Source of the DNA: Escherichia phage vB-Eco-KMB14
Length of the DNA: 44,563 bases
Sequence record: OR424384.1
Reading direction: 5' to 3' (one strand)
How positions within the stretch are numbered: the stretch's first letter is position 1; each line of letters begins with the position of its first letter. The translations under genes and the position numbers were made by a program. The notes below the pieces were generated by a model that did not search any database, was not told the DNA's origin, and saw only the letters and a program-made list of their open reading frames with translations. Below are positions 231-31,350 of the stretch, in pieces.

Positions 231-421
231 CACATGCAAGCATGTAAGATGCCATTAGGTCGCGGTCGGTAGACCGCTAAAGAAAGAGAATAGTAATAAG
301 ATGCAGTAGGAGGAACACCGGAAACCTAGCCAACCTAGCCTATCCTAGCTCTGTATCTATTGCTTTTCCTTAGTCTCACATGTTAGACAACCTATCTTAT
401 TCTTAGTGATGATAACTTAGT

Positions 422-450
422 GTTGACAAGATAATCTTAGTGTAATACTA
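422..450 (+). promoter_or_regulatory. Candidate host sigma70 early promoter (TTGACA, 17 nt spacer, TACTAT)
   Basis: TTGACA at 422-427 and a -10-like hexamer at 445-450, upstream of the first early ORF; T7-like phages use host RNAP for early transcription. Confidence 0.3.
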
Positions 451-552
451 TGCATCACGTAGGCGGTGCTGAGGCACCTAGTAGCCAGCTAGTAAGGCAT
501 ACGAAGAGACTAGCGCTTACATTGCTCTTTAACAATTTGCTTAGTGTAACCT

Positions 553-774
553 ATGTATGCCGTGGTTAATTACTTATTGAATGAGGGATTAACTATGACA
601 TTAAACAACCGTGAACTATCCGTTCTCTTTACCCTGTTGTGCTACATGATTCGTAACAACGAATTGCTTACAGATGACGAGTTGGCACTGTATCGTCGCT
701 TTCTTAACGAAGGTTGGACAGATACAGTTAATCAATACCGTAACATGATAGATGAGTTGAGGGAGGGTAAATAA
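553..774 (+). CDS. Hypothetical early protein (73 aa; alternative start at 595 with GAGGG Shine-Dalgarno gives 59 aa)
   Basis: ORF in the early region; the internal ATG at 595 is preceded by tgagggatt. Confidence 0.5.
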   Translation: MYAVVNYLLNEGLTMTLNNRELSVLFTLLCYMIRNNELLTDDELALYRRFLNEGWTDTVNQYRNMIDELREGK

Positions 775-998
775 TGTATCAACATGAGGTGTTCTTTGAA
801 TCAGCTAGCGAAGCTATTCGCTTCCGTGATGATATGATGCAAGCTGGTGTAGGCGTTGATGTGTATCACTATTTGATAGATTACGACACTGAATATCACC
901 GAGTTACCTTAGTATCTGAGTATGACAACCAAGTCATTACTGAGTATCTAGGTAGTGAAGATTATGATTACGATGAAGTAATCACGACAAATCTCTAA
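774..998 (+). CDS. Hypothetical early protein (74 aa)
   Basis: ORF with strong RBS ggaggg 8 nt upstream; start overlaps the previous stop (taATG). Confidence 0.55.
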   Translation: MYQHEVFFESASEAIRFRDDMMQAGVGVDVYHYLIDYDTEYHRVTLVSEYDNQVITEYLGSEDYDYDEVITTNL

Positions 999-1006
999 AT
1001 TAACTG

Positions 1007-1035
1007 TTGACAGCCACGGCATACAAGGTTACATT
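1007..1035 (+). promoter_or_regulatory. Candidate host sigma70 promoter (TTGACA, 17 nt spacer, TACATT)
   Basis: TTGACA at 1007-1012 and TACATT at 1030-1035, in an intergenic region. Confidence 0.3.
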
Positions 1036-1127
1036 AAGCATCAAGACGGCGACGTCTTTAAACATCCCGCTCTTTAACAATACGGTTTGTGTCTTGATAG
1101 GCTAACTAACTAACTAAGGTAATTATC

Positions 1128-1238
1128 ATGAAAGGTTTAATTTGTGTAGAACGTATGGTCAATGGTAAACTTGAAATATTACCACTGGAAAACCAATCTA
1201 GCTTCAAAGAGTGGTATGGCTGTTTCTCACTGATTTAA
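1128..1238 (+). CDS. Small hypothetical early protein (36 aa), not in the ORF track
   Basis: ATG at 1128 preceded by the ctaactaactaactaagg leader; translates MKGLICVERMVNGKLEILPLENQSSFKEWYGCFSLI. Confidence 0.35.
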   Translation: MKGLICVERMVNGKLEILPLENQSSFKEWYGCFSLI

Positions 1239-1388
1239 GGTAAAGGCTGGCACTAGTCAGCCTATCAAGGCGCAAACCAAGCTCTTTAACAATTTGGATA
1301 AAGCTTCTTAGTCTGGATAGGTTAAACCTAGGAGATTCTCTTGAGTCTCCTATAATGTAACCTAACTAACTAAATGAGGATTAATAAC

Positions 1389-1745
1389 ATGGCTATGTCT
1401 AATATGACTTACTCTCAGGTTTACAACACCGCTCATGCTGCATTAGTTGAACGTATCTGGAATGATGACATTGATTGTATCGATAACGCACATGATGCAA
1501 TCCATGAGGTAGCGGACAGTGCTGTACCAATCTATTATGCTGACATCTTCTCAGTGATGGCGAGTGAAGGTATTGATCACTTCTTCGAAGACTCCGGCCT
1601 GATGCCAGATACTAAGGATGTAACTGTCGTACTACAAGCCCGTATTTATGAACAACTAACCATTGATTTATGGGAACGTGTTCAAGATATGATTGTTGCG
1701 TACACCAATTACGCTGAGGATTCAGAAGAAGAAGAGGAAGAATAA
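1389..1745 (+). CDS. ocr: Ocr-like anti-restriction DNA-mimic protein (T7 gp0.3 homolog), 118 aa, poly-Glu C-terminus
   Basis: Translation MAMSNMTY...DAIH...[32 protein letters not shown]...[15 protein letters not shown] matches T7 Ocr nearly block for block. ATG at 1389 follows RBS gagg; the ORF-track start at 1374 is an N-terminal extension. Confidence 0.9.
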
Positions 1746-1746
1746 G

Positions 1747-1860
1747 ATGGAAAAGCTATACAACTTCATCTTTTCAGACGGTGTAACCCTGAAGTGTTCC
1801 CTGCGTTTCGCACAAATTCGTGAGGAAGTACTAGGCACTACATACAAACTATTTAGCTGA
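1747..1860 (+). CDS. Small hypothetical protein (37 aa)
   Basis: ATG 2 nt after the ocr stop, with AGGAAG upstream; in the position of T7 gene 0.4 but with no recognisable similarity. Confidence 0.3.
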   Translation: MEKLYNFIFSDGVTLKCSLRFAQIREEVLGTTYKLFS

Positions 1861-1871
1861 CACTATAAGAG
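1851..1871 (+). promoter_or_regulatory. Phage-RNAP promoter-like variant (ATTTAGCTGACACTATAAGAG)
   Basis: Matches the genome promoter consensus except around +1 (TATAAG instead of TATAGAAG). Confidence 0.3.
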
Positions 1872-1936
1872 AAGGCTTAACAAGGCGTTGCTACGGTAGC
1901 GCCTGATTAAACTTTCACTTACTAGGAGTTGAGATT

Positions 1937-2122
1937 ATGAAAACCTTGATTGGATGCTTCTTGTTGGCTTCTCTTGCTCTGGCATTTACCGCTAAAGCTG
2001 GTTATGACGCTTATAAAGTAGAACAAGCCCAGCAAGACTGGGCCAAAAAGTTCAACTTGTGCAGCAAGAGCAACACCTACGAGTACTGCAACAAAACACT
2101 AAGACACTTATGGAAAGAGTAA
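1937..2122 (+). CDS. Small secreted early protein with N-terminal signal peptide (61 aa)
   Basis: RBS aggag; N-terminus MKTLIGCFLLASLALAFTAKA is a typical Sec signal with an AKA cleavage motif; the mature part has two Cys. Confidence 0.6.
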   Translation: MKTLIGCFLLASLALAFTAKAGYDAYKVEQAQQDWAKKFNLCSKSNTYEYCNKTLRHLWKE

Positions 2123-2185
2123 CTAGCCTATAGCCTACCTGAGTGGGCTATGTGATATTTACTTACACTATATAAGGTGACTATT

Positions 2186-3109
2186 ATGACTACTGAAAAC
2201 ATCCTCCTGTCTGTCCGTGAAGCTGCAACCGCTGAGATTAAGCAGCACTTAGACAATATCGGCACTTCTTACATCAAAGTTGGCGCTTGTCTGAATGAAT
2301 TACGCGGTGATTTCGAAGGTCAAAAAGACTTTTTAGCTTATGTAGAATCAGAGTTCGGCATCAAGAAGGCACAATGCTACAAGCTGATGAGTGTAGCCCG
2401 TGTCTTTGAAGGAGACGAACGCTTTAAAGGTGTGGCTATGCGTGTAATGCTGGCGCTTGTTCCTTTCGCTGATGAAAATATAATCATGGAGAAGGCCGCA
2501 GAACTCGCCGCAGCTGGCAAGCTGGACACTAATGCCGTAAATGCCCTGATTGATCCTAAGAAAGAGACAAAGGCCGAGACGGTACAATCTAAGGCTGAGA
2601 CAGTAAAACCGCAGGAGAACGCGACTGAGGCCGCAGAAACTATGCAAGGACATGCAACCTTTGAGGATTTCATCTTAGAGAAGGCGAAGGAGGAGTTACA
2701 AAGTGTGCCGCCAGTAAGTGAGTCGGGTAACGACGAATCCGCACCGTGGGAAGATGAAAGCAAGCCGGAAGGCACAAAGGCAGCACCGCTGGATAACACG
2801 GCTAATACCGAAAACGCCGCTATTGCTGGTCTGCTGGCACAAATTAAAGCACTGACCGAGCAATTACAGGCAGCTAATGACCGCATTGCCTCCTTAAGCA
2901 GCGCACGCGAAAGCAAGAAAGCAGCCGCGCCTATGCTGCCGCAATTCAAATCTTCCTGCTTCTATGCTCGCTTAGGTTTAAGCGCTGAGGAGGCAACGAA
3001 GAAAACAGCAGTTAACAAGGCACGCCGCGAACTGGTTAAGCTAGGCTACGGCGAAGGCCATGAAGCATGGCCCTTAATCTCTGAGGCAGTAGAAGAATTA
3101 ACTAAGTAA
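2186..3109 (+). CDS. Hypothetical early protein (307 aa), unknown function, acidic/Ala-rich central region
   Basis: Long ORF immediately upstream of the RNAP gene. ATG at 2186 follows aagg; the ORF-track start at 2177 is GTG. Confidence 0.7.
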   Translation: MTTENILLSVREAATAEIKQHLDNIGTSYIKVGACLNELRGDFEGQKDFLAYVESEFGIKKAQCYKLMSVARVFEGDERFKGVAMRVMLALVPFADENIIMEKAAELAAAGKLDTNAVNALIDPKKETKAETVQSKAETVKPQENATEAAETMQGHATFEDFILEKAKEELQSVPPVSESGNDESAPWEDESKPEGTKAAPLDNTANTENAAIAGLLAQIKALTEQLQAANDRIASLSSARESKKAAAPMLPQFKSSCFYARLGLSAEEATKKTAVNKARRELVKLGYGEGHEAWPLISEAVEELTK

Positions 3110-3172
3110 CCTTATCGGTGGCATCTTCTTAGGTGTCACCTATTAAGGTTTCTTTCACTAGGAGTAAACAAG

Positions 3173-5800
3173 ATGCAAGACCTACACGCTATTCAACTTC
3201 AACTTGAAGAAGAAATGTTTAACGGAGGTATCCGTCGCTTTGAAGCGGACCAACAACGCCAGATTGCATCCGGTAATGAATCCGACACGGCATGGAATCG
3301 CCGCTTATTGTCTGAGTTAATCGCGCCAATGGCTGAAGGCATTCAGGCATACAAGGAAGAGTATGAAGGTAAAAGAGGCCGTGCACCGCGTGCATTAGCT
3401 TTCATTAACTGCGTAGAAAACGAAGTGGCAGCATATATCACGATGAAAATCGTTATGGATATGCTGAACACGGATGTAACCTTGCAGGCTATAGCCATGA
3501 ATGTAGCTGACCGCATTGAGGACCAAGTACGTTTTAGCAAGCTGGAAGGTCACGCCGCCAAATACTTTGAGAAAGTTAAGAAGTCACTTAAGGCAAGTAA
3601 GACTAAATCATATCGCCATGCGCACAACGTAGCGGTCGTGGCTGAGAAGTCAGTAGCTGACCGTGACGCTGATTTCTCTCGCTGGGAGGCGTGGCCTAAA
3701 GATACCTTGCTACAAATCGGTATGACCTTGCTAGAAATACTGGAAAATAGTGTATTCTTCAATGGTCAGCCTGTCTTTCTTCGCACCTTGCGCACTAATG
3801 GTGGCAAGCATGGCGTTTACTACTTACAGACTAGCGAACACGTGGGTGAATGGATAACTGCATTTAAAGAGCACGTAGCTCAGCTGAGTCCAGCCTATGC
3901 GCCTTGCGTTATTCCTCCTCGTCCGTGGGTTTCTCCGTTTAATGGTGGCTTCCATACCGAGAAAGTGGCGAGTCGTATTCGTCTGGTTAAAGGAAACCGC
4001 GAGCACGTCCGCAAGCTGACCAAAAAGCAAATGCCAGCGGTTTACAAGGCTGTTAACGCTTTGCAGGCGACTAAGTGGCAGGTTAATAAAGAGGTTTTGC
4101 AGGTAGTAGAGGACGTTATCCGTCTCGACCTTGGTTATGGTGTGCCTTCCTTTAAACCGCTCATCGACCGTGAGAACAAGCCAGCTAATCCAGTGCCGTT
4201 AGAGTTCCAGCACCTGCGAGGCCGTGAACTTAAAGAGATGCTAACGCCGGAACAATGGCAAGCCTTCATCAACTGGAAAGGCGAATGTACCAAGCTGTAT
4301 ACCGCTGAAACTAAGCGCGGCAGCAAGTCGGCGGCAACCGTTCGTATGGTCGGGCAGGCCCGTAAATACAGCCAGTTTGACGCAATATACTTCGTGTATG
4401 CACTGGATAGCCGCTCACGCGTTTATGCGCAATCTAGCACACTCTCACCGCAATCAAATGACTTAGGCAAGGCTTTACTACGCTTTACCGAAGGGCAGAC
4501 CATAAACAGCACTGAGGCGCTTAAGTGGTTTTTGGTGAACGGGGCAAATAACTGGGGCTGGGATAAGAAAACTTTTGACGTGCGTACCGCTAACGTGCTG
4601 GATGGCGAATTTCAAGACATGTGCCGCGACATTGCAGCCGACCCGCTGACCTTCACTCAATGGGTAAATGCTGATTCCCCTTATGGCTTCCTTGCATGGT
4701 GCTTTGAATATGCGCGTTATCTGGATGCACTGGACGAAGGAACGCAAGACCAATTCATGACGCACCTACCCGTCCATCAAGATGGTAGTTGCTCTGGTAT
4801 CCAGCACTATAGCGCGATGTTACGCGATGAGGTAGGTGCGAAAGCAGTAAACCTTAAGCCTTCTGACTCCCCTCAAGATATTTATGGCGCGGTTGCGCAG
4901 GTTGTTATCCAGAAGAATTACGCCTACATGAATGCAGACGATGCAGTGACTTTCACATCCGGAAGCGTCACACTTACAGGTGCAGAACTGCGTAGCATGG
5001 CTAGTGCGTGGGATATGATAGGAATCACTCGCGGCCTGACCAAAAAGCCCGTAATGACACTACCTTATGGCAGCACACGTCTAACCTGCCGTGAGTCAGT
5101 GATTGATTATATCGTTGATTTAGAAGAAAAAGAGGCCCAACGAGCTATTGCGGAAGGGCGTACCGCCAATCCTGTACATCCTTTTGATAATGACCGTAAG
5201 GACAGCCTGACACCTGGCGCAGCTTATAACTATATGACAGCTTTAATCTGGCCTTCTATTTCGGAAGTGGTTAAAGCTCCTATAGTGGCAATGAAAATGA
5301 TTCGTCAGCTTGCCCGTTTCGCAGCTAAAAGGAATGAAGGCTTAGAGTATACCTTGCCTACTGGCTTCATCTTGCAACAAAAGATTATGGCTACTGATAT
5401 GCTCCGCGTATCCACTTGCCTGATGGGAGAAATCAAGATGAGTCTACAGATTGAAACGGACGTAGTGGATGAAACGGCTATGATGGGCGCTGCTGCTCCT
5501 AACTTTGTGCATGGTCATGATGCCAGTCACCTTATCTTAACAGTCTGCGACCTTGTTGATAAAGGGATTACATCTATCGCAGTCATTCATGATTCTTTCG
5601 GTACTCACGCAGGCCGTACAGCCGATCTTCGTGATAGCTTAAGGGCAGAAATGGTGAAGATGTATCAAGGCCGTAATGCCCTGCAAAGCCTGTTAGATGA
5701 GCATGAAGAACGCTGGTTAGTAGACACCGGAATCCAAGTGCCAGAGCAAGGAGAGTTTGACCTTAACGAAATCTTAGTATCTGACTATTGCTTCGCATAA
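3173..5800 (+). CDS. T7-like single-subunit DNA-dependent RNA polymerase (875 aa)
   Basis: Size and motifs typical of T7 RNAP (HDSFGT motif C, PYGS region, C-terminal ...FA); RBS ctaggag. Confidence 0.95.
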
Positions 5801-5808
5801 TATTAATA

Positions 5809-5839
5809 GGCCATTCCTTCGGGAGTGGCCTTTTCTTTT
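5809..5839 (+). terminator. Rho-independent terminator after the RNAP gene (9-bp stem, UUCG tetraloop, T-run)
   Basis: ggccattcc-ttcg-ggagtggcc followed by ttttctttt. Confidence 0.55.
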
Positions 5840-5891
5840 ACCTACTACCGGTAACATTTCATTAACATAAAGTGTCTCACATGTGAGACTT

Positions 5892-5911
5892 ATTTACCGG
5901 ACACTATAGGA
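5892..5911 (+). promoter_or_regulatory. Phage-RNAP promoter (ATTTACCGGACACTATAGGA)
   Basis: Consensus match; first of a twin pair downstream of the RNAP gene. Confidence 0.5.
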
Positions 5912-6072
5912 TAGCCGTCGGAGACGGGAAAGAAAGGGAAGATAAAGGATATAAAGGAAGTAATAGGTATTAAAGGTTATATAGGTTATCTAGGAATACC
6001 TATTACCTTCTTCTTTCCTCTTATTACCACTTAGAGGAAGGGCAGAGCTAGGTTGTCTCACATGTGAGACTT

Positions 6073-6093
6073 ATTTACCGGACAGTATAGATA
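6073..6093 (+). promoter_or_regulatory. Phage-RNAP promoter variant (ATTTACCGGACAGTATAGATA)
   Basis: One substitution in the conserved core (CAGTATAG); second of the twin pair. Confidence 0.35.
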
Positions 6094-6120
6094 AGACTAA
6101 CTTACTTTGGAGATTTAACC

Positions 6121-6249
6121 ATGCGTAACTTTGAGAAGATGACCCGTAAAGCTAACCGTTTTGACATGGAAGAAGGGCAGAAGAAAGGCAAGAAGCTGAA
6201 TAAACCTGTCCGTGACCGTGCATCTAAACGCGCTGCGTGGGAGTTCTAA
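6121..6249 (+). CDS. gp1.1-like small basic protein (42 aa), not in the ORF track
   Basis: Translation MRNFEKMTRKANRFDMEEGQKKGKKLNKPVRDRASKRAAWEF resembles T7 gene 1.1 in sequence, length and position; RBS ggag. Confidence 0.7.
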   Translation: MRNFEKMTRKANRFDMEEGQKKGKKLNKPVRDRASKRAAWEF

Positions 6250-6252
6250 GTT

Positions 6253-8241
6253 ATGGCTATTATTCAGAATGTACCGTGTCCTGCTTGCCAAAAGAACGGA
6301 CATGATATTACTGGCAATCATTTAATGATCTTTGACGACGGGGCAGGGTACTGTAACCGTGGTCACTTCCATGATAACGGTAAACCTTATTACCACAAGC
6401 CGGAAGGTGGCATCGAGATAACCGAGTTACCTATTACTGGCAATATCAAATATACACCTTCTCAATTCAAAGAAATGGAGAAGGAAGGGAAGATAAGCGA
6501 CCCTAAGCTACGCGCCATCGCACTTGGTGGTATGCGTATGAAAGACCGTTGGGAGGTTATGAATGAGCAAGAAAGGGCAGACCAAGAAGCAGAGTGGAAA
6601 CTTGATGTTGAATGGTTTCTCACGCTTAAGCGTAAGAACCTTGTATCCCGTCACATTCGAGGTGACATCGCAGCAATGTACGATGTGCGCGTTGGACACG
6701 ATGAAGAGGGAAGAGTCAACCGTCACTATTATCCACGATATGAAAAGGGTGTGTTTGTTGGAGCAAAATGCCGGACGTTGCCGAAGGATTTTAAGTTCGG
6801 ACACCTAGGTAAACTCTTTGGTATGCAAGACCTTTTCGGTATGAACACTTTGTCTCACGTGTTAGACAAGGGGAGACGAAAGGATTGCTTGCTTATTGTA
6901 GGCGGTGAACTTGATGCACTAGCAGCGCAGCAGATGCTCCTTGATTCTGCCAAAGGTACTAAGTGGGAAGGTCAGCCATACCATGTATGGTCTGTCAATA
7001 AAGGTGAGTCTTGCCTTGAAGAGATAGTGCAAAACCGTGAGCACATAGCCCAATTCAAGAAGATTATATGGGGCTTTGATGGCGACGAGGTGGGGCAGAA
7101 GCAGAACCAACAAGCTGCTCGCCTGTTTCCTGGCAAATCCTACATCCTCGAATATCCATCTGGTTGCAAAGATGCTAACAAGGCATTGATGGCTGGCAAG
7201 GCTAAAGAGTTTGTAGATGCATGGTTTAATGCCAAGTCATCTGATGAAGTCTTTGGTAGCCAGATTAAATCTATCGCATCTCAAAGGGATAAGCTCAAGG
7301 CTGCACGTCCAGAGCAAGGACTATCATGGCCTTGGCCTAAGCTGAACAAGGTAACGCTAGGTATTCGTAAGAACCAACTTATCATTGTAGGCGCAGGCTC
7401 TGGTGTAGGTAAGACTGAGTTCCTTCGTGAAGTAGTTAAGCACCTCATTGAAGAACACGGTGAATCTGTAGGCATCATTTCTACAGAAGACCCGATGGTC
7501 AAGGTGTCCCGTGCTTTTATCGGCAAGTGGATTGATAAGCGTATTGAGTTACCGCCAACCAACGACCCGAAAGAAGATGGATACCGTGAGGTGTTCGACT
7601 ACACCGAGGAAGAGGCTAACGCCGCCATTGATTATGTAGCTGATACAGGTAAGCTGTTTGTAGCTGACCTAGAGGGTGACTATTCGATGGAAAAGGTAGA
7701 GCAAACTTGCCTAGAGTTTGAGGCTATGGGCATTTCTAATATCATCATTGATAACTTAACGGGGATTAAATTAGATGAGCGTGCTTTTGGTGGGAAGGTT
7801 GGTGCACTTGATGAATGCGTCAAGCGGATTGGTACTATCAAAGACCGACACCCGGTTACTATATTCCTTGTATCACACCTTACACGTCCTCCGGCAAACC
7901 GTACCCAACACGAAGAAGGTGGCGAGGTTATCCTTTCTGACTTCCGAGGTTCAGGCGCTATCGGATTCTGGGCATCTTACGCCTTGGGGATTGAGCGTAA
8001 TACAAGAGCTGAAACGCTTGATGAACGGACTACCACGTACATCTCATGTGTCAAAGACCGCGACCAAGGTATCTACACTGGAACCAAGGTCATGCTTAAG
8101 GGTGACATTCAAACCGGACGTTTAATGGAACCACAAGCCCGTACTAAGTCATTTGATACAGGTGAAGCAAGGCAACAAGAAGTGCCGGATTTACCGGACA
8201 CTATAGAAGAGACAACTTTTGACGATGAACAGGAGTTTTAA
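6253..8241 (+). CDS. DNA primase/helicase (T7 gp4-like, 662 aa) with acidic C-terminal tail ending in Phe
   Basis: N-terminal Cys4 zinc ribbon (CPACQ...CNRGH), Walker A GAGSGVGKT, C-terminus ...TTFDDEQEF. Confidence 0.95.
   Translation: MAIIQNVPCPACQKNGHDITGNHLMIFDDGAGYCNRGHFHDNGKPYYHKPEGGIEITELPITGNIKYTPSQFKEMEKEGKISDPKLRAIALGGMRMKDRWEVMNEQERADQEAEWKLDVEWFLTLKRKNLVSRHIRGDIAAMYDVRVGHDEEGRVNRHYYPRYEKGVFVGAKCRTLPKDFKFGHLGKLFGMQDLFGMNTLSHVLDKGRRKDCLLIVGGELDALAAQQMLLDSAKGTKWEGQPYHVWSVNKGESCLEEIVQNREHIAQFKKIIWGFDGDEVGQKQNQQAARLFPGKSYILEYPSGCKDANKALMAGKAKEFVDAWFNAKSSDEVFGSQIKSIASQRDKLKAARPEQGLSWPWPKLNKVTLGIRKNQLIIVGAGSGVGKTEFLREVVKHLIEEHGESVGIISTEDPMVKVSRAFIGKWIDKRIELPPTNDPKEDGYREVFDYTEEEANAAIDYVADTGKLFVADLEGDYSMEKVEQTCLEFEAMGISNIIIDNLTGIKLDERAFGGKVGALDECVKRIGTIKDRHPVTIFLVSHLTRPPANRTQHEEGGEVILSDFRGSGAIGFWASYALGIERNTRAETLDERTTTYISCVKDRDQGIYTGTKVMLKGDIQTGRLMEPQARTKSFDTGEARQQEVPDLPDTIEETTFDDEQEF
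8189..8209 (+). promoter_or_regulatory. Phage-RNAP promoter embedded in the 3' end of the primase/helicase gene
   Basis: ATTTACCGGACACTATAGAAG consensus match. Confidence 0.5.
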
Positions 8242-8402
8242 TGGAAATTATTAAACCAGTATTGAATATCGGTATTGAGATCCTATTCATGCTTGTGATC
8301 GCAGATTATGCTGCACGATATGGCTTCAAGAAAGCAGTGAAACTTATCGTTGCATCTGGTTTTATGATGTCAATGTTCTTTATTGTAACACGCCTTATCT
8401 AG
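8241..8402 (+). CDS. Small hydrophobic membrane protein (53 aa), not in the ORF track
   Basis: ATG overlaps the primase stop; RBS aggag; translation MEIIKPVLNIGIEILFMLVIADYAARYGFKKAVKLIVASGFMMSMFFIVTRLI. Confidence 0.45.
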   Translation: MEIIKPVLNIGIEILFMLVIADYAARYGFKKAVKLIVASGFMMSMFFIVTRLI

Positions 8403-8415
8403 TGTATTTATCAGG

Positions 8416-8446
8416 GCTTGTCTCACATGTGAGACAGGCTCTTATT
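8416..8446 (+). terminator. Conserved palindrome hairpin (GTCTCACATGTGAGAC core) followed by a T-rich tract
   Basis: gcttgtctcacatgtgagacaggc then tcttatt; one of seven copies of the same palindrome. Confidence 0.45.
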
Positions 8447-8474
8447 AAGTACATTAAATAACTGGAGATTGATT

Positions 8475-9387: not shown

Positions 9388-9553
9388 ACATAGTCTTAGA
9401 ATGTTCGATGGTCATGAAGACCTGCAAGCCAAGATTACTAACCAAGCCTTCCTGTTCGCACAGTTAACTATGGCTGAGGCCAAGAAGAATAGTCTCACTC
9501 GTGAACAGGTTATCAAGGAAAGTGAAGTGAAACGTAAGATTCGCAGTCGATAA
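9377..9553 (+). CDS. Small hypothetical protein (58 aa), not in the ORF track
   Basis: ATG overlaps the end of the preceding ORF; the ORF ends just before a terminator-like hairpin. Confidence 0.35.
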   Translation: MQNKHSLRMFDGHEDLQAKITNQAFLFAQLTMAEAKKNSLTREQVIKESEVKRKIRSR

Positions 9554-9560
9554 GTCAAGG

Positions 9561-9590
9561 GTTGTCTCACGTGTGAGACAGCCTTTTATC
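9561..9590 (+). terminator. Conserved palindrome hairpin (GTCTCACGTGTGAGAC) plus T-run; rho-independent terminator-like
   Basis: gttgtctcacgtgtgagacagcc followed by ttttatc. Confidence 0.5.
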
Positions 9591-9610
9591 ATGTTGATTG
9601 GAGGTGCATT

Positions 9611-12456: not shown

Positions 12457-12572
12457 TGGATAGGCTTGACATTGTTTACCTATTCTTCACTTTCTTTCTT
12501 GTATTTCTTATGATTGCTTGTTACGGAAGTATGCAGGTAAATATACCTGATGAAGAGGAAGGATACGACTGA
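12456..12572 (+). CDS. Small membrane protein (38 aa), not in the ORF track
   Basis: ATG overlaps the DNAP stop (tgATGg); hydrophobic core IVYLFFTFFLVFLMIACYG. Confidence 0.35.
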   Translation: MDRLDIVYLFFTFFLVFLMIACYGSMQVNIPDEEEGYD

Positions 12573-12630
12573 GTTATACTCAAGGTCACTTACGAGTGGC
12601 CTTTATGGATAACTTAACTAAGGAAATATT

Positions 12631-12891
12631 ATGATTAAATACACTGCTTATCAGTTAACTAAAGACCATAAGATAGGTATTGAGGTTAAGGCTTGGGAGC
12701 GAGGTCATATCTCTGGAGTAATAGAGGTGCGTTCCAAGGAAGGTATGATGATTAGAAGACACTTTAGTTTCGCTAAATCTACTTGTAAGCATTTAACAGA
12801 GGAACAATTCTTACATCATATTATTAACAATATTAAAGCTATCCAGCCTTATGCCAAGCAAGTTGTAGGTAATGTCACAGTAGTACATTGA
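12631..12891 (+). CDS. Hypothetical protein (86 aa)
   Basis: RBS aaggaa; its last 21 nt are part of the duplicated 105-bp unit. Confidence 0.6.
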   Translation: MIKYTAYQLTKDHKIGIEVKAWERGHISGVIEVRSKEGMMIRRHFSFAKSTCKHLTEEQFLHHIINNIKAIQPYAKQVVGNVTVVH

Positions 12892-12911
12892 TTTACTGGA
12901 CACTATAGAAG
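12891..12911 (+). promoter_or_regulatory. Phage-RNAP promoter (ATTTACTGGACACTATAGAAG), copy 1 of the duplicated unit
   Basis: Exact consensus. Confidence 0.7.
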
Positions 12912-13082
12912 GAAAGCCTAGATAATCTAGGTTTATAAGGTAGTATAGGTAATTAAGTAAATATAGGAGATATAAGCTATAGGTTCTGCCGTTATGGCTG
13001 GTATGTCTTCTATTGGTAGTATGTTTACAGGCAGCGGCTGCTGCACCGCTGCCTGTAAACATAATGTCACAGTAGTACATTG

Positions 13083-13103
13083 ATTTACTGGACACTATAG
13101 AAG
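13083..13103 (+). promoter_or_regulatory. Phage-RNAP promoter, copy 2 of the duplicated unit, driving the 13170 gene
   Basis: Exact consensus; followed by the leader and RBS ataggaga. Confidence 0.7.
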
Positions 13104-13169
13104 GAAAGCCTAGATAATCTAGGTTTATAAGGTAGTATAGGTAATTAAGTAAATATAGGAGATATAAAC

Positions 13170-13547
13170 ATGTCTATGGTAACTACTCTGGTATTTGTAG
13201 CTCAATACTTTCGTGGTCTGGCTAATAAGTTCAAGTCCAAGGCTATCAAAGCTATTGAGTCTCGCATCGAGGCAGTCCAGGCAGAGCAAGTTAAAGTTGA
13301 AGAACATCGTAGTTCTCAAATGATTGACTGCCACAATCGCTACTATGCATCTCGTGATGAACTGAATGCTCGTCAAGTCAAAGAGGTTGAAGAGATGCTG
13401 GCACGTCACCAGCAAGAGCGCGACAGCCTGAAAGCTGAATTTGAAGAGAACAAGGCATCCATCGCCCTTGTACATCAAGCCGCATCTGACAGCCTGAAGA
13501 AAGAGATTGTTATGCTGGAGATTGAGTTAGACAATCTTACCAAATAA
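13170..13547 (+). CDS. Hypothetical coiled-coil protein (125 aa)
   Basis: RBS aggaga; charged heptad-like sequence. Confidence 0.65.
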   Translation: MSMVTTLVFVAQYFRGLANKFKSKAIKAIESRIEAVQAEQVKVEEHRSSQMIDCHNRYYASRDELNARQVKEVEEMLARHQQERDSLKAEFEENKASIALVHQAASDSLKKEIVMLEIELDNLTK

Positions 13548-14744: not shown

Positions 14745-14776
14745 AGTCTCACGTGTGAGACAAATCGGTGTCCGGT

Positions 14777-14797
14777 ATTTACTGGACACTATAGAAG
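14777..14797 (+). promoter_or_regulatory. Phage-RNAP promoter (ATTTACTGGACACTATAGAAG)
   Basis: Exact consensus, immediately downstream of the palindrome hairpin. Confidence 0.7.
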
Positions 14798-14849
14798 AGA
14801 AGAATTTTAATCGGCGATAATGCCATAATCAACAAAAGGAGAATTTAAT

Positions 14850-24445: not shown

Positions 24446-24453
24446 TACCTATG

Positions 24454-24486
24454 CCCTATCTACCTTGCGTAGGTAGGGTTCTTTTT
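24454..24486 (+). terminator. Rho-independent terminator after the major capsid gene (T7 Tphi-like position)
   Basis: ccctatctac-cttgc-gtaggtaggg, then ttcttttt. Confidence 0.6.
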
Positions 24487-25237: not shown

Positions 25238-27639
25238 TGGAAGTACAAGGTTCATTAGGTAGACAAATCCAAGGGATTAGCCAGCAGCCGCCAGCGGTAC
25301 GCTTGGATGGTCAGTGCACAGCTATGGTTAATATGATACCTGATGTAGTGAATGGTACTCAATCACGCATGGGTACAACTCATATTGCAAAGATACTTGA
25401 TGCGGGGACTGATGACATGGCTATTCATCATTATCGCAGAGGTGATGGTGATGAAGAGTATTTCTTCACGTTGAAGAAAGGACAAGTTCCTGAGATATTT
25501 GATAAGTATGGGCGCAAATGTAATGTGACTTCACAAGATGCACCTATGACCTACCTCTCTGAGGTTGTTAATCCAAGGGAAGATGTACAATTCATGACGA
25601 TAGCTGATGTTACTTTCATGCTTAATCGTAGGAAAGTAGTTAAAGCTAGTAACAGGAAGTCACCTAAAGTTGGAAACAAAGCCATTGTGTTTTGTGCGTA
25701 TGGTCAATATGGTACATCTTATTCCATTGTAATTAATGGGACCAACGCTGCTAGTTTTAAAACACCGGATGGTGGAAGTGCAGACCATGTTGAACAAATT
25801 CGAACTGAACGTATCACTTCTGAATTGTACTCTAAGTTGCAGCAATGGAGCGGTGTGAGTGACTATGAAATACAAAGAGACGGTACTAGTATATTTATCG
25901 AGAGACGGGATGGTGCTAGCTTTACAATAACAACCACCGATGGTGCAAAAGGTAAGGACTTAGTGGCTATCAAGAATAAAGTTAGCTCTACTGACCTACT
26001 CCCTTCTCGTGCGCCTGCTGGTTATAAAGTACAAGTGTGGCCTACTGGCAGCAAACCTGAGTCTCGTTACTGGCTGCAAGCTGAGCCTAAAGAGGGAAAC
26101 CTTGTGTCTTGGAAAGAAACAATAGCTGCTGATGTATTACTTGGGTTTGATAAAGGCACAATGCCTTACATTATTGAACGTACAGATATCATCAACGGCA
26201 TAGCTCAATTCAAGATAAGACAAGGTGATTGGGAAGATCGTAAAGTAGGGGATGACTTGACTAACCCTATGCCCTCTTTTATTGATGAGGAGGTACCCCA
26301 GACAATAGGTGGAATGTTCATGGTGCAGAACCGCCTATGCTTTACAGCAGGTGAAGCGGTTATTGCTTCTCGTACATCATACTTCTTCGATTTCTTTCGT
26401 TATACGGTTATCTCTGCATTGGCAACTGACCCATTTGATATTTTCTCAGATGCTAGTGAAGTCTACCAGCTAAAACATGCAGTGACCTTAGATGGCGCTA
26501 CCGTGTTGTTCTCTGATAAGTCACAATTCATACTGCCAGGCGATAAGCCTTTAGAGAAGTCAAATGCACTGCTTAAGCCTGTTACAACATTTGAAGTGAA
26601 CAATAAAGTGAAGCCAGTAGTAACTGGTGAATCGGTAATGTTTGCCACTAATGATGGTTCTTACTCTGGTGTACGAGAGTTCTATACAGACTCTTATAGT
26701 GACACTAAGAAGGCACAAGCAATCACAAGTCATGTGAATAAACTCATCGAAGGTAACATTACCAACATGGCAGCAAGCACCAATGTCAACAGGTTACTTG
26801 TCACTACCGATAAGTATCGTAACATAATCTACTGCTACGATTGGTTATGGCAAGGAACAGACCGTGTACAATCAGCATGGCATGTATGGAAGTGGCCTAT
26901 AGGTACAAAGGTGCGAGGTATGTTTTATTCTGGTGAATTACTTTACCTGCTCCTTGAGAGAGGCAATGGTGTCTATCTGGAGAAGATGGATATGGGTGAT
27001 GCATTAACCTATGGTTTAAATGATCGCATCCGAATGGATAGACAGGCAGAGTTAATCTTCCAGCATTTCAAAGCAGAAGATGAATGGGTATCTGAACCGC
27101 TCCCTTGGGTTCCTACTAATCCAGAACTTTTAGATTGCATCTTAATCGAGGGTTGGGATTCATATATTGGTGGTTCTTTCCTATTCAAATACAACCCCGG
27201 TGATAACACCTTGTCTACAACCTTTGATATGCATGATGATAGCCACGTAAAAGCGAAGGTTATTGTTGGTCAGATTTACCCTCAAGAGTTTGAACCAACA
27301 CCTGTAGTTATCAGAGATAGGCAAGACCGTGTATCCTATATTGATGTACCTGTTGTGGGATTAGTTCACCTTAATCTTGATATGTATCCTGATTTCTCCG
27401 TGGAGGTTAAGAATGTGAAGAGTGGTAAAGTACGCAGGGTGCTAGCGTCAAACCGTATAGGTGGTGCTCTCAACAATACAGTAGGTTATGTTGAACCAAG
27501 AGAGGGTGTCTTCAGATTCCCACTGAGAGCTAAGAGTACGGATGCTGTTTATCGTATTATTGTAGAATCACCTCACACATTCCAGCTCCGCGATATTGAG
27601 TGGGAAGGGAGCTACAATCCAACCAAAAGGAGGGTCTAA
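25237..27639 (+). CDS. Tail tubular protein B (gp12-like), 800 aa
   Basis: Size and position; ATG at 25237 follows RBS ggagga and overlaps the upstream stop. Confidence 0.8.
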   Translation: MEVQGSLGRQIQGISQQPPAVRLDGQCTAMVNMIPDVVNGTQSRMGTTHIAKILDAGTDDMAIHHYRRGDGDEEYFFTLKKGQVPEIFDKYGRKCNVTSQDAPMTYLSEVVNPREDVQFMTIADVTFMLNRRKVVKASNRKSPKVGNKAIVFCAYGQYGTSYSIVINGTNAASFKTPDGGSADHVEQIRTERITSELYSKLQQWSGVSDYEIQRDGTSIFIERRDGASFTITTTDGAKGKDLVAIKNKVSSTDLLPSRAPAGYKVQVWPTGSKPESRYWLQAEPKEGNLVSWKETIAADVLLGFDKGTMPYIIERTDIINGIAQFKIRQGDWEDRKVGDDLTNPMPSFIDEEVPQTIGGMFMVQNRLCFTAGEAVIASRTSYFFDFFRYTVISALATDPFDIFSDASEVYQLKHAVTLDGATVLFSDKSQFILPGDKPLEKSNALLKPVTTFEVNNKVKPVVTGESVMFATNDGSYSGVREFYTDSYSDTKKAQAITSHVNKLIEGNITNMAASTNVNRLLVTTDKYRNIIYCYDWLWQGTDRVQSAWHVWKWPIGTKVRGMFYSGELLYLLLERGNGVYLEKMDMGDALTYGLNDRIRMDRQAELIFQHFKAEDEWVSEPLPWVPTNPELLDCILIEGWDSYIGGSFLFKYNPGDNTLSTTFDMHDDSHVKAKVIVGQIYPQEFEPTPVVIRDRQDRVSYIDVPVVGLVHLNLDMYPDFSVEVKNVKSGKVRRVLASNRIGGALNNTVGYVEPREGVFRFPLRAKSTDAVYRIIVESPHTFQLRDIEWEGSYNPTKRRV

Positions 27640-28361
27640 TGGCTATAGGTTCTGCCGTTATGGCTGGTATGTCTTCTATTGGTAGTATGTTTACAGGCAG
27701 CGGTGCAGCAGCCGCTGCTGGAGGTGCTGCCGCAGGTGGCGGAGGCTTGCTAGGTTCTCTAGGTGGCTTCCTAAGCGGCTCTACTGCTGGCTTCTCTAAT
27801 GCTGGGCTTCTTGGTGCTGGCCTTCAAGGTTTAGGCTTGATTGGTGATCTCTTTGGTGGAAGTGATGAAGCCAAGGCAATGAAGAAAGCACAAGAAGAAC
27901 AGTGGCGGCAGCAACTTATTGCTACACAAGAAGCATACAAAACAGTAGCAGATGCAGAGCGTTCTGCTGCTAAACAATATCATGCAGATGCAATAAGCAA
28001 TCAGGCTTCACTACTACAGCAGCGAGCACAGGTTGCATTACTAGCAGGTGCTACTGGTACTGGTGGTAACTCTGTATCTTCTATGCTGAATGACTTAGCA
28101 GCAGAGGGCGGGAGGAACCAGAGTACAATTATTGATAACTATGAGAATCAGAAGATTAACTTCACCAATCAGCTTAAGTCTATCCAGCGAGGTGGACAGA
28201 TGCAGATGCGTGAGTTTAAGAAGCCTTCTGCCGTGAGCACCTTGGTGCAAGGTATACCGAGTCTGGCATCTGCCTATGTAACAGGTAGTAAGTCCGGCAT
28301 GGCTTTAGGTAAAGCTTTAACTGATTCTCGTACATATTCATCTGGAACAAGAGGTATTTAA
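27639..28361 (+). CDS. Internal virion protein A (Gly/Ala-rich N-terminus), 240 aa
   Basis: ATG at 27639 follows RBS ggaggg. Its 5' end (27642-27711) is the source of the ectopic insert at 12976-13062. Confidence 0.7.
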   Translation: MAIGSAVMAGMSSIGSMFTGSGAAAAAGGAAAGGGGLLGSLGGFLSGSTAGFSNAGLLGAGLQGLGLIGDLFGGSDEAKAMKKAQEEQWRQQLIATQEAYKTVADAERSAAKQYHADAISNQASLLQQRAQVALLAGATGTGGNSVSSMLNDLAAEGGRNQSTIIDNYENQKINFTNQLKSIQRGGQMQMREFKKPSAVSTLVQGIPSLASAYVTGSKSGMALGKALTDSRTYSSGTRGI

Positions 28362-31309
28362 TGGCAATTGAGCGACAAGCAGTACAAGGTCTGCCACAAG
28401 TGCAGGCCACTTCTCCTAATGTCATGACCTTTGCACCTCAGCAAGTTGGAGGTGTGGAGGCTGGCGTAGCTTCTACCTCCGGTAGTCGATTTATCGAAGA
28501 CCTTATTCGAGCAGCCAGTAGTGTAGCTGATGTTACCACGGGTATCCTTAATCAGAAGATTGAGGAGGATAAGGTTGTTCAAATGGAACGGGCATATAAT
28601 GGATTAATGCCCTCTGAGGATGCAACTCGTGGTGGCGCTCGTGCTAACATGCTTGTCAAAGCTCAACTGCTAGCTAATGATGAAGCAGCACGAATGAAAG
28701 ACATGGCTACTCGTTTCCAAGGAACGGATGACGAGTGGACACAACTTATGGTTGACTCTCGTAATGAGATGCAGAATAAGCTGTTCCAGCAATACCCTGA
28801 GTTGCAAGGTGACAAAGATACTATGCGTATGGTCACTAATGTCTTCCAAGAACAGCAGCCTCAGATTTGGGCTACACGAACCCAGCATAAACTTGACCGT
28901 GAACAAGCAGACCGTGAGGATACCTTTGACGGGCGAGTGGCTTCTACTTGGGATTCTAATATTGACCCTGAAGCCTCTGGCTATGCTTTACAGGAACGAA
29001 TCCGCGAAGGTCTTACTCAAGGATTACTACCTGAACAGATGCACAAGAAGTTAGTCCAGCGAGCAATTTCACTTGCACAAGGCGGTGATGTTAGCATGGC
29101 TGAAGCCCTGAAGTATGTGAAGGACGATAAGGGTGTTTCTGTTTATGCTAAGAATCCACAGCTTATCACAGCCATCACTAGTGGTAATGCAGTTTGGGCT
29201 AGGAATAATGTAGCTGATGTAACTCGTATGTCTTTCGAAGTTAAAGAATCATACCTTGCAGGTGATTTAACTGATGAAGAATTGTTGGAACGAGCACAGC
29301 ACATTAATAATCTGACAGGTAACTCTGTCTTCTCTAACCCAGAACTAGAGGCACTGATGCGCCAACGAGCTAAGCAGAATGCAGAGCTAGGTGCAATGCA
29401 GGATATGCGCCGTGAGCTTTACTCCGACCGCCTGACTGGCTTCCAAGGTAAGACTGATAAAGAGAAGAAGGCTTACATTGATGTTATCAAACAAGATAGC
29501 CAACTTTATGCAGACCAGCAAATCAAACAACGTGGCTTGGACCCTTACAGTCAAGAGGCTGAAGCTATTCGTGGTGCAGTGGAAGTGCAGCGCCTACAAT
29601 TCATGAACTCCAAAGGCTTAGTGGATGATACCTTTGAGTCTCGTATCAAAGCCATGGAATCTATGCTATCTCCTGAGCACTTTGCCAAGGGCGAACCACA
29701 AGAGTTGATGACTATTCGCCAGTTGTGGGAACAGTTGCCAGAAGAGAGCCGAGGTGTCTTTGGTGACACGGTGAATGGCTACATGGATAACTACAACACT
29801 GCACTACAAATGGGAGAGACACCTTTGCAGGCTGCAAGGTTTGCGCGTGAAGCACAGCAGAAATTCTCTCGTACTGAGAAGGAAACCAAGAAGTTCAACT
29901 CAGCTATTGGAGATGCACTGGATGAGGTATCTGGTGCTGGCTGGTTCGATGGTAAAACCGAAGTGTCAGACTTAGGTAAAGCTATTGCAGAAGAGGAGTT
30001 ACGAGCTAAGGCTAATATGCTGTGGTCTAGTGGTATGCGTAACATGGATTCCATCAAGAAGGCTTTAATTACTTGGGGCAATAAACGCTACACTCAAACA
30101 GAGGATGCAAAGACTTCCGGTGGCTATTTCATTAAAGGTGATTACACTTCTGCATCTGATATGCTTATGTCAGTTGGGAAAGGCGTAAATCCTACCGATG
30201 TACCTCTGGCGCTTGGTAGGTATGTAGAAACACAGATGCCAGAATTGAAGAAGGAGCTTCAAGAGTGGGAAACTAAAGATGATATATACATTGATTACAA
30301 TGAACAGAAAGGTACTTTCGTGATTCGTGCTGGTGCAGCAGGTCGCCCTCTTTCTGGAGTAATCCCTGTAACCTCTTTAGATACCACTTCACTACTAGAT
30401 TCTGCCTATCAGAAGAAAGTAGAGGAACGAGATAAAGGCGAGTATGTTCACCCTTATCGTACAGATATTGGTGCACAAGAGCCTATGCCAGCTAAACCAA
30501 CTGCCAAAGATATTGGTAAATTTGGACTAGCTAACTTCCTCATGTCTTCTGCTTTTGCTTCTGGTGAGAATCTGCCTTCTAACTTCGAGATTAACTATCG
30601 AGGTAATATGCAACAATTCTATGACAAGCTAGCTATGGATGAGAATAAAGATAAAGTTGGCTTTAATAAGGCAACTGGAACCTTTACTCCATATAAAGAT
30701 GCTCACGGTGAGTCTATCGGTTACGGTCATTTCTTAACGGAAGAAGAGAAGCGAAACGGGTATATTAAGATTGGTGATGAACTAGTTCCCTATCGAGGGT
30801 CTATGTCTCAGCTTACAGAGAGCAAGGCTCGCGCTCTTATGGAGCAAGATGCCAAGAAGCATGTGCCTCCTACTCGTGACTGGAAGATTCCGTTTGACCA
30901 GATGCATCCTGCACAGCAACGTGGCTTGCTGGATTTAACCTACAATTTAGGTAAAGGTGGAATCCAGAACTCACCGCGTGCTCTTGCTGCATTCAAAGCT
31001 GGTAAGCTTACGGAAGGCTTTATCGAAATGCTGGGCACTGCATCAAGTGAAGGTAAGCGTATCCCTGGTCTACTGAAGCGACGCGCTGAGGCATACAATA
31101 TGGCATCTGCTGGTGGTGTGCCTAAGATTACCGAAGTGGAGACTCGTGAAGATGGCTCCATGTGGGTTAGGTTTGGTGGACCTATGCCAGCAGGTTCTGT
31201 CTCGGCATGGATTCATAAACGTATTGGCGCGGATGGTTGGTATCAGGTTTATGAGGCTGCACCTACCAAGTTAGCTAAAGGTTCTAAGGTAGGTAAATTT
31301 AAGTTGTAG
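28361..31309 (+). CDS. Internal virion protein B with C-terminal lysozyme-like (T4-lysozyme/GH24-type) domain, 982 aa
   Basis: C-terminal segment YKDAHGESIGYGH...LLDLTYNLGKGG resembles the catalytic region of T4-type lysozymes. Confidence 0.75.
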   Translation: MAIERQAVQGLPQVQATSPNVMTFAPQQVGGVEAGVASTSGSRFIEDLIRAASSVADVTTGILNQKIEEDKVVQMERAYNGLMPSEDATRGGARANMLVKAQLLANDEAARMKDMATRFQGTDDEWTQLMVDSRNEMQNKLFQQYPELQGDKDTMRMVTNVFQEQQPQIWATRTQHKLDREQADREDTFDGRVASTWDSNIDPEASGYALQERIREGLTQGLLPEQMHKKLVQRAISLAQGGDVSMAEALKYVKDDKGVSVYAKNPQLITAITSGNAVWARNNVADVTRMSFEVKESYLAGDLTDEELLERAQHINNLTGNSVFSNPELEALMRQRAKQNAELGAMQDMRRELYSDRLTGFQGKTDKEKKAYIDVIKQDSQLYADQQIKQRGLDPYSQEAEAIRGAVEVQRLQFMNSKGLVDDTFESRIKAMESMLSPEHFAKGEPQELMTIRQLWEQLPEESRGVFGDTVNGYMDNYNTALQMGETPLQAARFAREAQQKFSRTEKETKKFNSAIGDALDEVSGAGWFDGKTEVSDLGKAIAEEELRAKANMLWSSGMRNMDSIKKALITWGNKRYTQTEDAKTSGGYFIKGDYTSASDMLMSVGKGVNPTDVPLALGRYVETQMPELKKELQEWETKDDIYIDYNEQKGTFVIRAGAAGRPLSGVIPVTSLDTTSLLDSAYQKKVEERDKGEYVHPYRTDIGAQEPMPAKPTAKDIGKFGLANFLMSSAFASGENLPSNFEINYRGNMQQFYDKLAMDENKDKVGFNKATGTFTPYKDAHGESIGYGHFLTEEEKRNGYIKIGDELVPYRGSMSQLTESKARALMEQDAKKHVPPTRDWKIPFDQMHPAQQRGLLDLTYNLGKGGIQNSPRALAAFKAGKLTEGFIEMLGTASSEGKRIPGLLKRRAEAYNMASAGGVPKITEVETREDGSMWVRFGGPMPAGSVSAWIHKRIGADGWYQVYEAAPTKLAKGSKVGKFKL

Positions 31310-31321
31310 TATCTAACTCAA

Positions 31322-31350
31322 GGCTTGTCTCACATGTGAGACAGGTCTTT
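31322..31350 (+). terminator. Conserved palindrome hairpin (GTCTCACATGTGAGAC) plus T-rich tract
   Basis: gcttgtctcacatgtgagacaggtc followed by tttat. Confidence 0.45.

Follow-up and report, generated by a model that had tools for sequence, protein, structure and literature searches.

A lineage-typed palindrome in SP6-group phages, possibly an operator-like site of the early protein gp6

Escherichia phage vB-Eco-KMB14 (sequence record OR424384.1; 44,563 nucleotides, the whole of which we call the window) carries eight copies of a 16-bp palindrome whose form here is GTCTCAC-RT-GTGAGAC. We propose that this palindrome could well be an operator-like site of double-stranded DNA to which the early phage protein gp6 binds as a dimer, although we stop short of calling this probable. 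That gp6 binds the palindrome, that the bound form is DNA and not RNA, and that binding has any regulatory effect are all points that we infer from the comparison of genomes. An earlier note on the window had listed seven copies and had offered three explanations: a processing or stability hairpin of the RNase III type, a pause or termination signal, and a DNA site for a phage or host protein. Binding by a phage protein appears to be the best unifying reading of all eight copies, and the other explanations are weighed below where the evidence bears on them.

Eight copies in the window and their conservation

Vectrevirus genomes (K1E, K1-5 and relatives) share 93-96% identity with the window across most of its first 20 kb, and the gene order is that of the K1E record: early genes, RNA polymerase (RNAP), primase/helicase, DNA polymerase (DNAP), structural genes and tailspikes. 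The window is the complete genome of an SP6-group phage (Molineuxvirinae; K1E/K1-5-like, Vectrevirus), and its + strand carries every gene. Allowing up to three mismatches, we found eight matches to the palindrome in the window against 0.15 expected, and eight matches were reached in none of 100 shuffles. The half-site GTCTCAC was seen 10 times on the + strand (1.8 expected) and eight of these occurrences lie inside palindromes, as do all six occurrences of GTGAGAC in the window. This indicates that the unit is the whole palindrome and not the half-site.

The seven copies of the earlier note were recovered at their coordinates and with the mismatches it had given. The left-end copy (373-388; GTCTCACATGTTAGAC) combines the hybrid half-sites GTCTCAC and GTCTAAC and lies 35 bp upstream of the -35 element of a sigma70-like early promoter (423-451). 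An exact copy (5874-5889) follows the RNAP gene and its terminator, 2 nt upstream of a phage promoter (5892-5913; ATTTACCGGACACTATAGG), and another exact copy (6055-6070) stands 2 nt upstream of a second promoter-like site (6073-6094; ATTTACCGGACAGTATAGA); the promoters beside these two copies are of the ATTTACCGGACAC/GTATAG type. A copy with a GT spacer (GTCTCACGTGTGAGAC; 14746-14761) begins 2 nt past the stop codon of gp17, 15 nt ahead of the promoter at 14777-14798, and three copies thus stand before phage promoters, as had been claimed. The remaining three occupy the apex of RNase III-like hairpins on the + strand: an exact copy (8420-8435; hairpin 8400-8456) between the primase region and gene 10, a second GT-spacer copy (9564-9579; hairpin at about 9544-9599) between gene 11 and gene 11.5/12, and an exact copy (31327-31342; hairpin at about 31307-31363) between gp35 and gp36. 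The map of open reading frames (ORFs) confirms that all seven are intergenic. However, this does not extend to the whole family, since an eighth, imperfect copy that had been missed (6852-6867; GTCTCACGTGTTAGAC) lies in the primase/helicase ORF (6253-8241), where it encodes S-H-V-L-D.

Other parts of the earlier description concerned the flanks. The "same orientation" ascribed to the copies is meaningless for a palindrome, orientation being present only in the flanking sequence. Complementary flanking bases extend three of the seven intergenic copies (8420, 9564 and 31327) and not most of them; the other four (373, 5874, 6055 and 14746; -2.7 to -10.2 kcal/mol) have a bare stem of only 6 bp, as does the coding copy at 6852. 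The T-rich tract that was said to follow the palindrome belongs, at 5874 and 6055, to the upstream, AT-rich part of the adjacent phage promoter. Behind each of the three long stems, it forms the 3' side of an internal loop and of a lower stem, and not the U-tract of a terminator.

Two of the promoter regions show further organization. Between 5890 and 6100, tandem phage promoters, with a palindrome before each, bracket a purine- and AT-rich stretch past the RNAP terminator; by analogy, this two-promoter region may resemble the primary replication origin of T7 (phi1.1A/phi1.1B). An inverted copy of the specificity region of the 14777-14798 promoter lies upstream of that region and pairs with it over 10 bp with one G.T (14767-14790; GGTGTCCGGTATTTACTGGACAC). 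In SP6, Premi, PP1 and phD2B, the equivalent repeat and the promoter sequence co-change, which indicates that the order of palindrome, promoter-containing hairpin and promoter has been kept. The promoter-containing hairpin recalls the T7 sites R3.8, R6.5 and R13, which overlap promoters.

We scanned related genomes with the pattern GTC[CT][ACT]A[CT]-N2-5-[GA]T[TGA][GA]GAC. Nine Molineuxvirinae genomes presented 6-9 sites each at orthologous positions, and T7 presented no site with this pattern. The orthologous positions are the left end, the region past the RNAP gene by the promoters, the primase/helicase gene, the three hairpins, and a place before the promoter near 14-17 kb. Additional copies were found in the RNAP gene of PP1, phD2B and Era103, and in kinase or ligase genes of some genomes. 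The left-end copy has orthologs in K1E, K1-5, SP6, PP1, phD2B, FBKp16, Era103 and HJG; its halves include GTCTAAC at least once in every genome examined, and K1-5, where both are GTCTAAC, is the only one in which it is not a hybrid. Orthologs of the copy at 14746 are present in SP6, Premi, PP1, phD2B and Era103. Colwellvirinae phages of Vibrio, Aeromonas and Pseudomonas (phi-A318, HJG and uligo) carry 8-9 copies of GTCTCAC-N3-GTGAGAC in similar places, several copies were found in metagenomic contigs without DNA similarity to the window (six in contig L009), and PP99 (Gajwadongvirus) presents GTCTAGT-AY-ACTAGAC at matching positions. The sequence of the palindrome, and not its structure alone, is therefore conserved across two subfamilies, which strongly supports the earlier argument that near-identical stems imply sequence-specific recognition. 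These comparisons point to an ancient element that has held its positions.

The family consensus is GTCYMAC-N2-3-GTKRGAC, and the type is uniform inside a genome and specific to the lineage. GTCTCAC is the type of K1E-like phages, Era103 and Colwellvirinae, and GTCCAAC that of Premi, PP1, FBKp16 and phD2B; SP6 presents a mixture that includes GTCTAAC, and PP99 has GTCTAGT. The GTCTCAC type is thus common to phages of E. coli, Erwinia, Vibrio, Aeromonas and Pseudomonas, whereas closer relatives on other enteric hosts present GTCCAAC. Because the palindrome type follows the phage lineage and not the host, we ruled out a site for a host protein, the unlikely half of the suggestion that a phage or host protein binds the DNA. 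The central 2-3 nt are the least conserved part of the element (AT, GT, AC, GC or N3), and since they vary freely they fit the spacer of an operator, unlike the loop of a recognized RNA.

Several other palindromes and copies were observed in these scans. Lone GTCCAAC copies are found in two GTCTCAC-type genomes, K1-5 (9570) and L014 (9394), at RNase III-hairpin positions only; this suggests recombination with GTCCAAC-type phages, the foreign type being tolerated where RNA structure matters. PP99 (161, 7939, 8017 and 16305) and Nufs112 (142, 974, 17017 and 45683) possess a second repeated palindrome, GTACTAG-N4-CTAGTAC. It occupies the left end, the region past the RNAP gene and a place ahead of the promoter near 16-17 kb, and in the case of PP99 it adjoins the GTCTAGT-type palindrome of that phage. 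Finally, three exact copies of the window's palindrome (964-979, 1004-1019 and 3004-3019) stand at hairpin tips between genes in L027, a 129-kb high-GC contig of IMG/VR. The L027 hairpins are GC-rich and their lower stems differ, with an identical 20-nt apex (GTGTCTCACATGTGAGACAC). We considered this contig as a possible relative of the phage family and judged it unrelated to SP6-like phages.

Sequence recognition and the candidate reader gp6

The copies located within genes bear on what is recognized in the palindrome. In the primase, the copy encodes S-N-V-L-D in GTCCAAC genomes and in most genomes generally, and S-H-V-L-D in K1E-like phages only; in the RNAP, it encodes V-S-N-V-L-D in PP1 and phD2B, and V-S-H-V-L-D in Era103 only. 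The RNAP of phi-A318 (4686-4702) presents V-S-R-C-E-T where its relatives have V-S-N-V-L-D, and the DNA at this place is a perfect palindrome (GTCTCACGCTGTGAGAC). An essential enzyme appears to have been recoded in phi-A318 to hold the site. The right half of the primase copy cannot be GTGAGAC because an in-frame TGA stop would arise; with this half barred, the left half changed alone in K1E-like phages, which produced a mid-stem C.U mismatch. Pairing in this copy seems to have been given up for half-site identity, and the mismatch argues that hairpin stability is not the selected trait. Since the type shifts genome-wide by lineage, coding copies included, at a cost in amino acids and with pairing left unrestored, the palindrome is likely read by its sequence.

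We searched for a phage protein that changes together with the palindrome. The first screen covered non-structural proteins found in all palindrome-bearing genomes and absent from T7 by tblastn, and we looked for alignment columns separating GTCTCAC- from GTCCAAC-type genomes, initially in 10 genomes and then in a set extended with 42 loci around gp6 homologs. The early gene gp6 (2177-3109, + strand) encodes 310 amino acids from a GTG at 2177, and its K1E homolog starts 9 nt later. Its product is present in every palindrome-bearing genome and was undetected in T7 (tblastn). In the first screen, position 69 of gp6 was K against N, with H in SP6 and R in PP99. In the extended set, all 24 loci of the GTCTCAC type had K at this residue, all 19 of the GTCCAAC type had N (17) or H (2), and the two of the GTCTAGT type had R. 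Position 69 was the sole clean column of the 2693 tested across gp6, RNAP, primase and DNAP, as a correlation over few independent transitions. Other columns of RNAP, primase and DNAP that discriminated the first 10 genomes were rejected, as they failed in the extended set (43 loci). The nearest relatives of the window's gp6 (63-71% identity) have N or H at position 69, which suggests that K69 changed together with the sites in the K1E-like clade. Lysine is usually preferred with a C:G pair and asparagine with an A:T pair, and by these preferences the K/N swap fits position 5 of the half-site (C:G in one type and A:T in the other).

The AlphaFold2 model of gp6 has a predicted local distance difference test (pLDDT) score of 73-89 in the N-terminal domain and a predicted template modelling (pTM) score of 0.35 overall. 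In this model, helices 49-60 and 64-77 are separated by a three-residue turn in a helix-turn-helix (HTH)-like arrangement, and residue 69 is the sixth of the second helix. The N-terminal domain is followed by a disordered linker, a 42-residue helix (209-250) that could mediate dimerization, and a compact C-terminus that resembles a J-domain. A Foldseek search of the model against the PDB gave no significant match, and sequence searches of Pfam, PHROGs and the PDB assigned no functional family to gp6, gp10, gp16, gp18 or other small proteins.

The element shares features with the operators of dimeric regulators: its inverted half-sites together span 14-18 bp, the spacer at the centre varies, and it is found at several loci. 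The residue-69 helix of the N-terminal domain would contact each half-site, and the predicted target of gp6 would be the duplex GTCTCACATGTGAGAC. The eight sites would form a small genome-wide binding network, located upstream of the early host promoter, by three phage promoters, in the primase/helicase gene and at the three intergenic hairpins, where the copies would be lodged in the free apical part of the RNase III structure. Possible effects of gp6 include promoter control, shut-off of early transcription, initiation of replication past the RNAP gene, and genome organization. More speculatively, and with clear doubt on our part, gp6 may be a global DNA-binding regulator of SP6-supergroup phages, in which an HTH-like N-domain is joined to a coiled coil and a J-like domain. 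Under this wider proposal, its operators would have been fixed in position since before the split of Molineuxvirinae and Colwellvirinae, the RNAP and primase/helicase genes would have been recoded under strong selection to carry operator copies, and a single recognition-helix residue (K, N or R) would have been re-tuned along with all the sites.

Several observations weigh against an operator bound by gp6. The spacing between half-sites can be N2 or N3, both being found within Premi, and SP6 presents a one-sided, U.G-compatible asymmetry (GTCTAAC..GTTGGAC) at six sites in one orientation. Genomes with K at position 69 tolerate GTCCAAC at hairpin positions (the K1-5 and L014 copies described above), and Nufs112-like phages carry K69 but no GTC-type palindrome. 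In addition, the fold evidence that the gp6 model offers is weak, and the covariation of gp6, whether K, N or R, holds equally for RNA and cannot tell DNA from RNA recognition. In view of these observations, an RNA hairpin that gp6 or some other protein reads by its sequence is a serious rival, even though we regard it as unlikely. Such a protein would act on polycistronic + strand transcripts in the manner of lambda N on boxB, or as a processing or translation factor. All genes being on the + strand, most copies would be transcribed; the loops would measure 4 nt with an N2 spacer and 3-5 nt with an N3 spacer, sizes natural for hairpins that would explain the tolerance in spacing, and the SP6 asymmetry is of the kind that RNA pairing allows. 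The copies of relatives also often abut a Shine-Dalgarno sequence, the palindrome of phi-A318, uligo and L009 lying directly before AGGAG.

However, several conserved copies contain mid-stem C.U, A.G or C.A mismatches that would abolish a hairpin of 6-7 bp: the K1E-like primase copy, the RNAP copies and, in most genomes examined, the left-end copy (it is perfect in K1-5 and G.U-compatible in PP1 and phD2B). Hybrid sites represent 22% of the non-coding copies and 44% of the coding copies (261 distinct sites), and conservation is lowest in the loop bases, which usually provide the key contacts where proteins bind hairpins. Moreover, the copies at 5874, 6055 and 14746 are upstream of promoters and are therefore missing from the transcripts of those promoters. 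The likeness to lambda N and the boxB of nut consists of identical short hairpins at several loci, with lineage variants that co-vary with a phage protein. In lambda it is the loop of boxB that is recognized, whereas the loop of the window's palindrome is variable and several conserved copies cannot form a hairpin. We know of no antitermination role for single-subunit RNA polymerases.

RNase III-type hairpins, terminators and replication signals

Three of the copies are part of larger RNA structures. At 8420, 9564 and 31327, the 16-mer is extended to a 13-bp stem (-17.6 to -19.8 kcal/mol) with G.U pairs that work in + strand RNA only, and the larger fold consists of an upper stem, an asymmetric internal loop and a lower stem of 6-11 bp (-23.8 to -31.7 kcal/mol). 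A two-part hairpin of about two helical turns with an internal loop was found at these three copies and not at 373, 5874, 6055, 6852 or 14746. The same succession of lower stem, asymmetric internal loop and upper stem is seen in the T7 sites R0.3, R0.5, R1, R1.1, R1.3, R4.7 and R18.5, and both these sites and the three long copies are intergenic and close upstream of a gene. The T7 positions used for folding are taken to be the RNase III cleavage positions reported by Dunn and Studier 1983, the T7 records being without annotation of these features. Folding T7 DNA at these positions gave the same architecture as the long copies, with the common motif ACTCAAGG[upper stem]CCTTTATGAT.

The hairpin between gp35 and gp36 reads ACTCAAGGCTT[palindrome]AGGTCTTTATGAT. 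Its flanks (ACTCAAGG...CTTTATGAT) match those of T7 R0.3/R0.5/R1.1/R18.5, and the loop motif ACUCAAGG...CUUUAUGAU is present in both. Across ten phages, its lower stem is kept through compensatory change: 8 of the 23 pairs of the hairpin show double changes, among them four lower-stem pairs with 3-8 pair types each. By their sequence and structure, we regard the hairpins at 8420, 9564 and 31327 as probable processing hairpins of the T7 type. The suggestion of an RNase III processing or stability hairpin thus held for these three copies, in which the palindrome is the apical part only, and not for the others. The processing function at the three loci would come from the RNA structure and not from the palindrome. 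Internal loops limit RNase III to one cut, leaving a protective 3' hairpin (PMC1540722).

We built a covariance model from the seven T7 RNase III sites only, with these coordinates, and ran it unfiltered on both strands of the window. The eight best matches were all on the + strand and all intergenic. Three of them hold a palindrome: 31304-31366 (E 5e-5; copy 31327), and, with marginal E-values, 9541-9603 (E 0.02; copy 9564) and 8397-8459 (E 0.054; copy 8420). The other five are without it. The best of all (12566-12620; E 9e-10; ACTCAAGGTCACTTACGAGTGGCCTTTATGGAT) is an RNase III-like hairpin nearly identical to the T7 consensus, and a two-part RNase III-like hairpin (3101-3157; E 0.03) lies directly before the RNAP gene, at the position of T7 R1; the remaining matches are 1315-1367 (E 0.05), 2114-2167 (E 0.1) and 41733-41774 (E 0.13). 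The five bare copies were unmatched even at E-values up to 10. A scan of the window with Rfam 15 gave nothing relevant, its sole match being a chance miRNA (E 0.53).

The palindrome is a module separate from the RNase III hairpins. The two are separable because each occurs without the other in the window, where several RNase III-like hairpins lack the palindrome and five palindromes lie outside such hairpins, and the same is true of Era103, in which the orthologs of two hairpins, the one ahead of the DNAP gene and the gp35/gp36 one, have unrelated upper stems, and whose GTCTCAC-type palindromes are elsewhere. In HJG and phi-A318, the palindrome adjoins a T7-like hairpin and is not inside it. 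The upper stems of T7 are likewise variable and share no common palindrome, whereas those of the three long copies host a 16-bp element that is also found alone, by promoters and within genes.

These data bear on a reading in which all copies are RNase III or 3'-stability hairpins and their degenerate remnants, kept identical by box preferences and gene conversion and requiring no reader protein. T7-like phages recombine actively, and three copies are clearly inside T7-type RNase III hairpins. In addition, E. coli RNase III has positive base-pair determinants in the proximal and distal boxes (PMC1540722). However, the enzyme typically needs about two helical turns (PMC1540722), and the 6-bp stems of five of the eight copies are too short. 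Other RNase III-like hairpins, in the window, Era103 and T7, have unrelated upper stems, and gene conversion alone leaves the orthologous coding copies, the recoding in phi-A318 and the covariation of residue 69 unexplained. A purely structural role in RNA fits only three of the eight copies, and we consider this reading rather improbable.

It is highly improbable that the copies serve in intrinsic termination or in pausing, be it of the host RNA polymerase or of the phage enzyme, for which the earlier note had suggested such a signal. The record of Proteus phage Premi labels the three orthologous long hairpins "terminator", and a consensus scan calls the copies at 5874 and 6055. We regard the Premi labels as a prediction artefact. 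In the window, the copies at 8420, 9564 and 31327 fail a scan for a stem followed by a T-run, their downstream T-rich bases being paired into the covarying lower stem, and those at 5874 and 6055 are called only through the AT-rich upstream element of the promoter (TTATTTAC). The convincing terminators of this genome, past the RNAP gene (5808-5831) and past the capsid gene (24453-24479), have unrelated GC-rich stems and real T-runs. Finally, coding copies in essential genes cannot terminate transcription.

A role in DNA replication or recombination, as an origin or priming signal or as cruciforms or recombination hot spots at module boundaries, seems to us improbable as well, if less so than termination. 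GTC is the trinucleotide of T7-type primases, and it is present at the outer ends of the palindrome on both strands; two copies also flank the origin-like, AT-rich region with two promoters past the RNAP gene, and the foreign-type copies of K1-5 and L014 suggest exchange near the sites. However, recognition by primase would leave the inner 10 bp unconstrained, isolated half-sites are not enriched in the window, and there is no sign of mobility or of target duplications. The covariation of gp6 would also be unexplained unless gp6 is a replication factor, in which case this reading merges with that of a site bound by gp6.

The window also has a direct repeat of about 100 bp (12880-12985 and 13072-13170) that contains, in each unit, a phage promoter (12891 and 13083), a palindrome of its own, CCTAGATTATCTAGG, and an AT-rich leader, and a strong 18-bp hairpin (TGTTTACAGGCAGCGG...CCGCTGCCTGTAAACA) is located between the two units.

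Related systems and implications

The proposed network can be compared with KorB and its OB sites on the IncP plasmid RK2, in which an HTH protein of the ParB family binds a palindrome repeated around the replicon. Sequence homology between KorB and gp6 could not be detected, and their folds match weakly. In place of a ParB dimerization domain, gp6 presents a coiled-coil-like helix and a C-terminus resembling a J-domain. The two also differ in setting, since KorB is found on a plasmid and the putative gp6 network would belong to a lytic phage of the T7 supergroup. To our knowledge, regulators of the KorB kind have not been described in lytic phages of this supergroup.

Dispersed and mutually similar palindromes are also present in an Autographiviridae genome, that of the T7-like vibriophage VIB04, where the DdmABC (Lamassu) defence senses the palindromes as hairpins of DNA and is triggered by them (Robins et al. 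2024, PMC11707656). Some of the VIB04 palindromes resemble RNase III sites, and they too have consequences at the DNA level. That work concerns the sensing of hairpin-forming DNA by the host, whereas the present analysis concerns the phage's own use of its sites, and the GTCTCAC motif is not in the text of PMC11707656. Hairpin-forming palindromes may expose SP6-group phages to defences of the Lamassu/DdmABC type (PMC11707656). Such sensing suggests a cost of carrying the repeats, which in turn suggests that they provide a benefit.

Full-text searches of the literature, for the exact motif and for its half-sites among others, found neither the palindrome nor its covariation with gp6 described; an earlier mention of the palindrome in the primary genome papers (Dobbins 2004; Scholl 2004), which lie outside this coverage, is possible. 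RNase III sites of the T7 type are well known, and what is new is their presence in an SP6-group genome, which corrects the "terminator" annotations. We recommend that annotations of the three long hairpins name them probable RNase III sites and not terminators.

Phages of the SP6, K1E and K1-5 type serve in phage therapy and supply RNA polymerases. In the textbook view of the T7 supergroup, the programme consists of promoters, terminators, RNase III sites and polymerase inhibitors, and no DNA-binding regulator that recognizes specific sites is known to take part in it. If gp6 does read the palindrome, this would be the first network of a site-specific regulator described in a supergroup thought to be run by polymerase switching alone, and it would add a new regulatory or replication layer to these phages. 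A function would also be found for an early gene annotated as "hypothetical" that is among the most conserved of its kind in SP6-, K1E- and K1-5-type phages.

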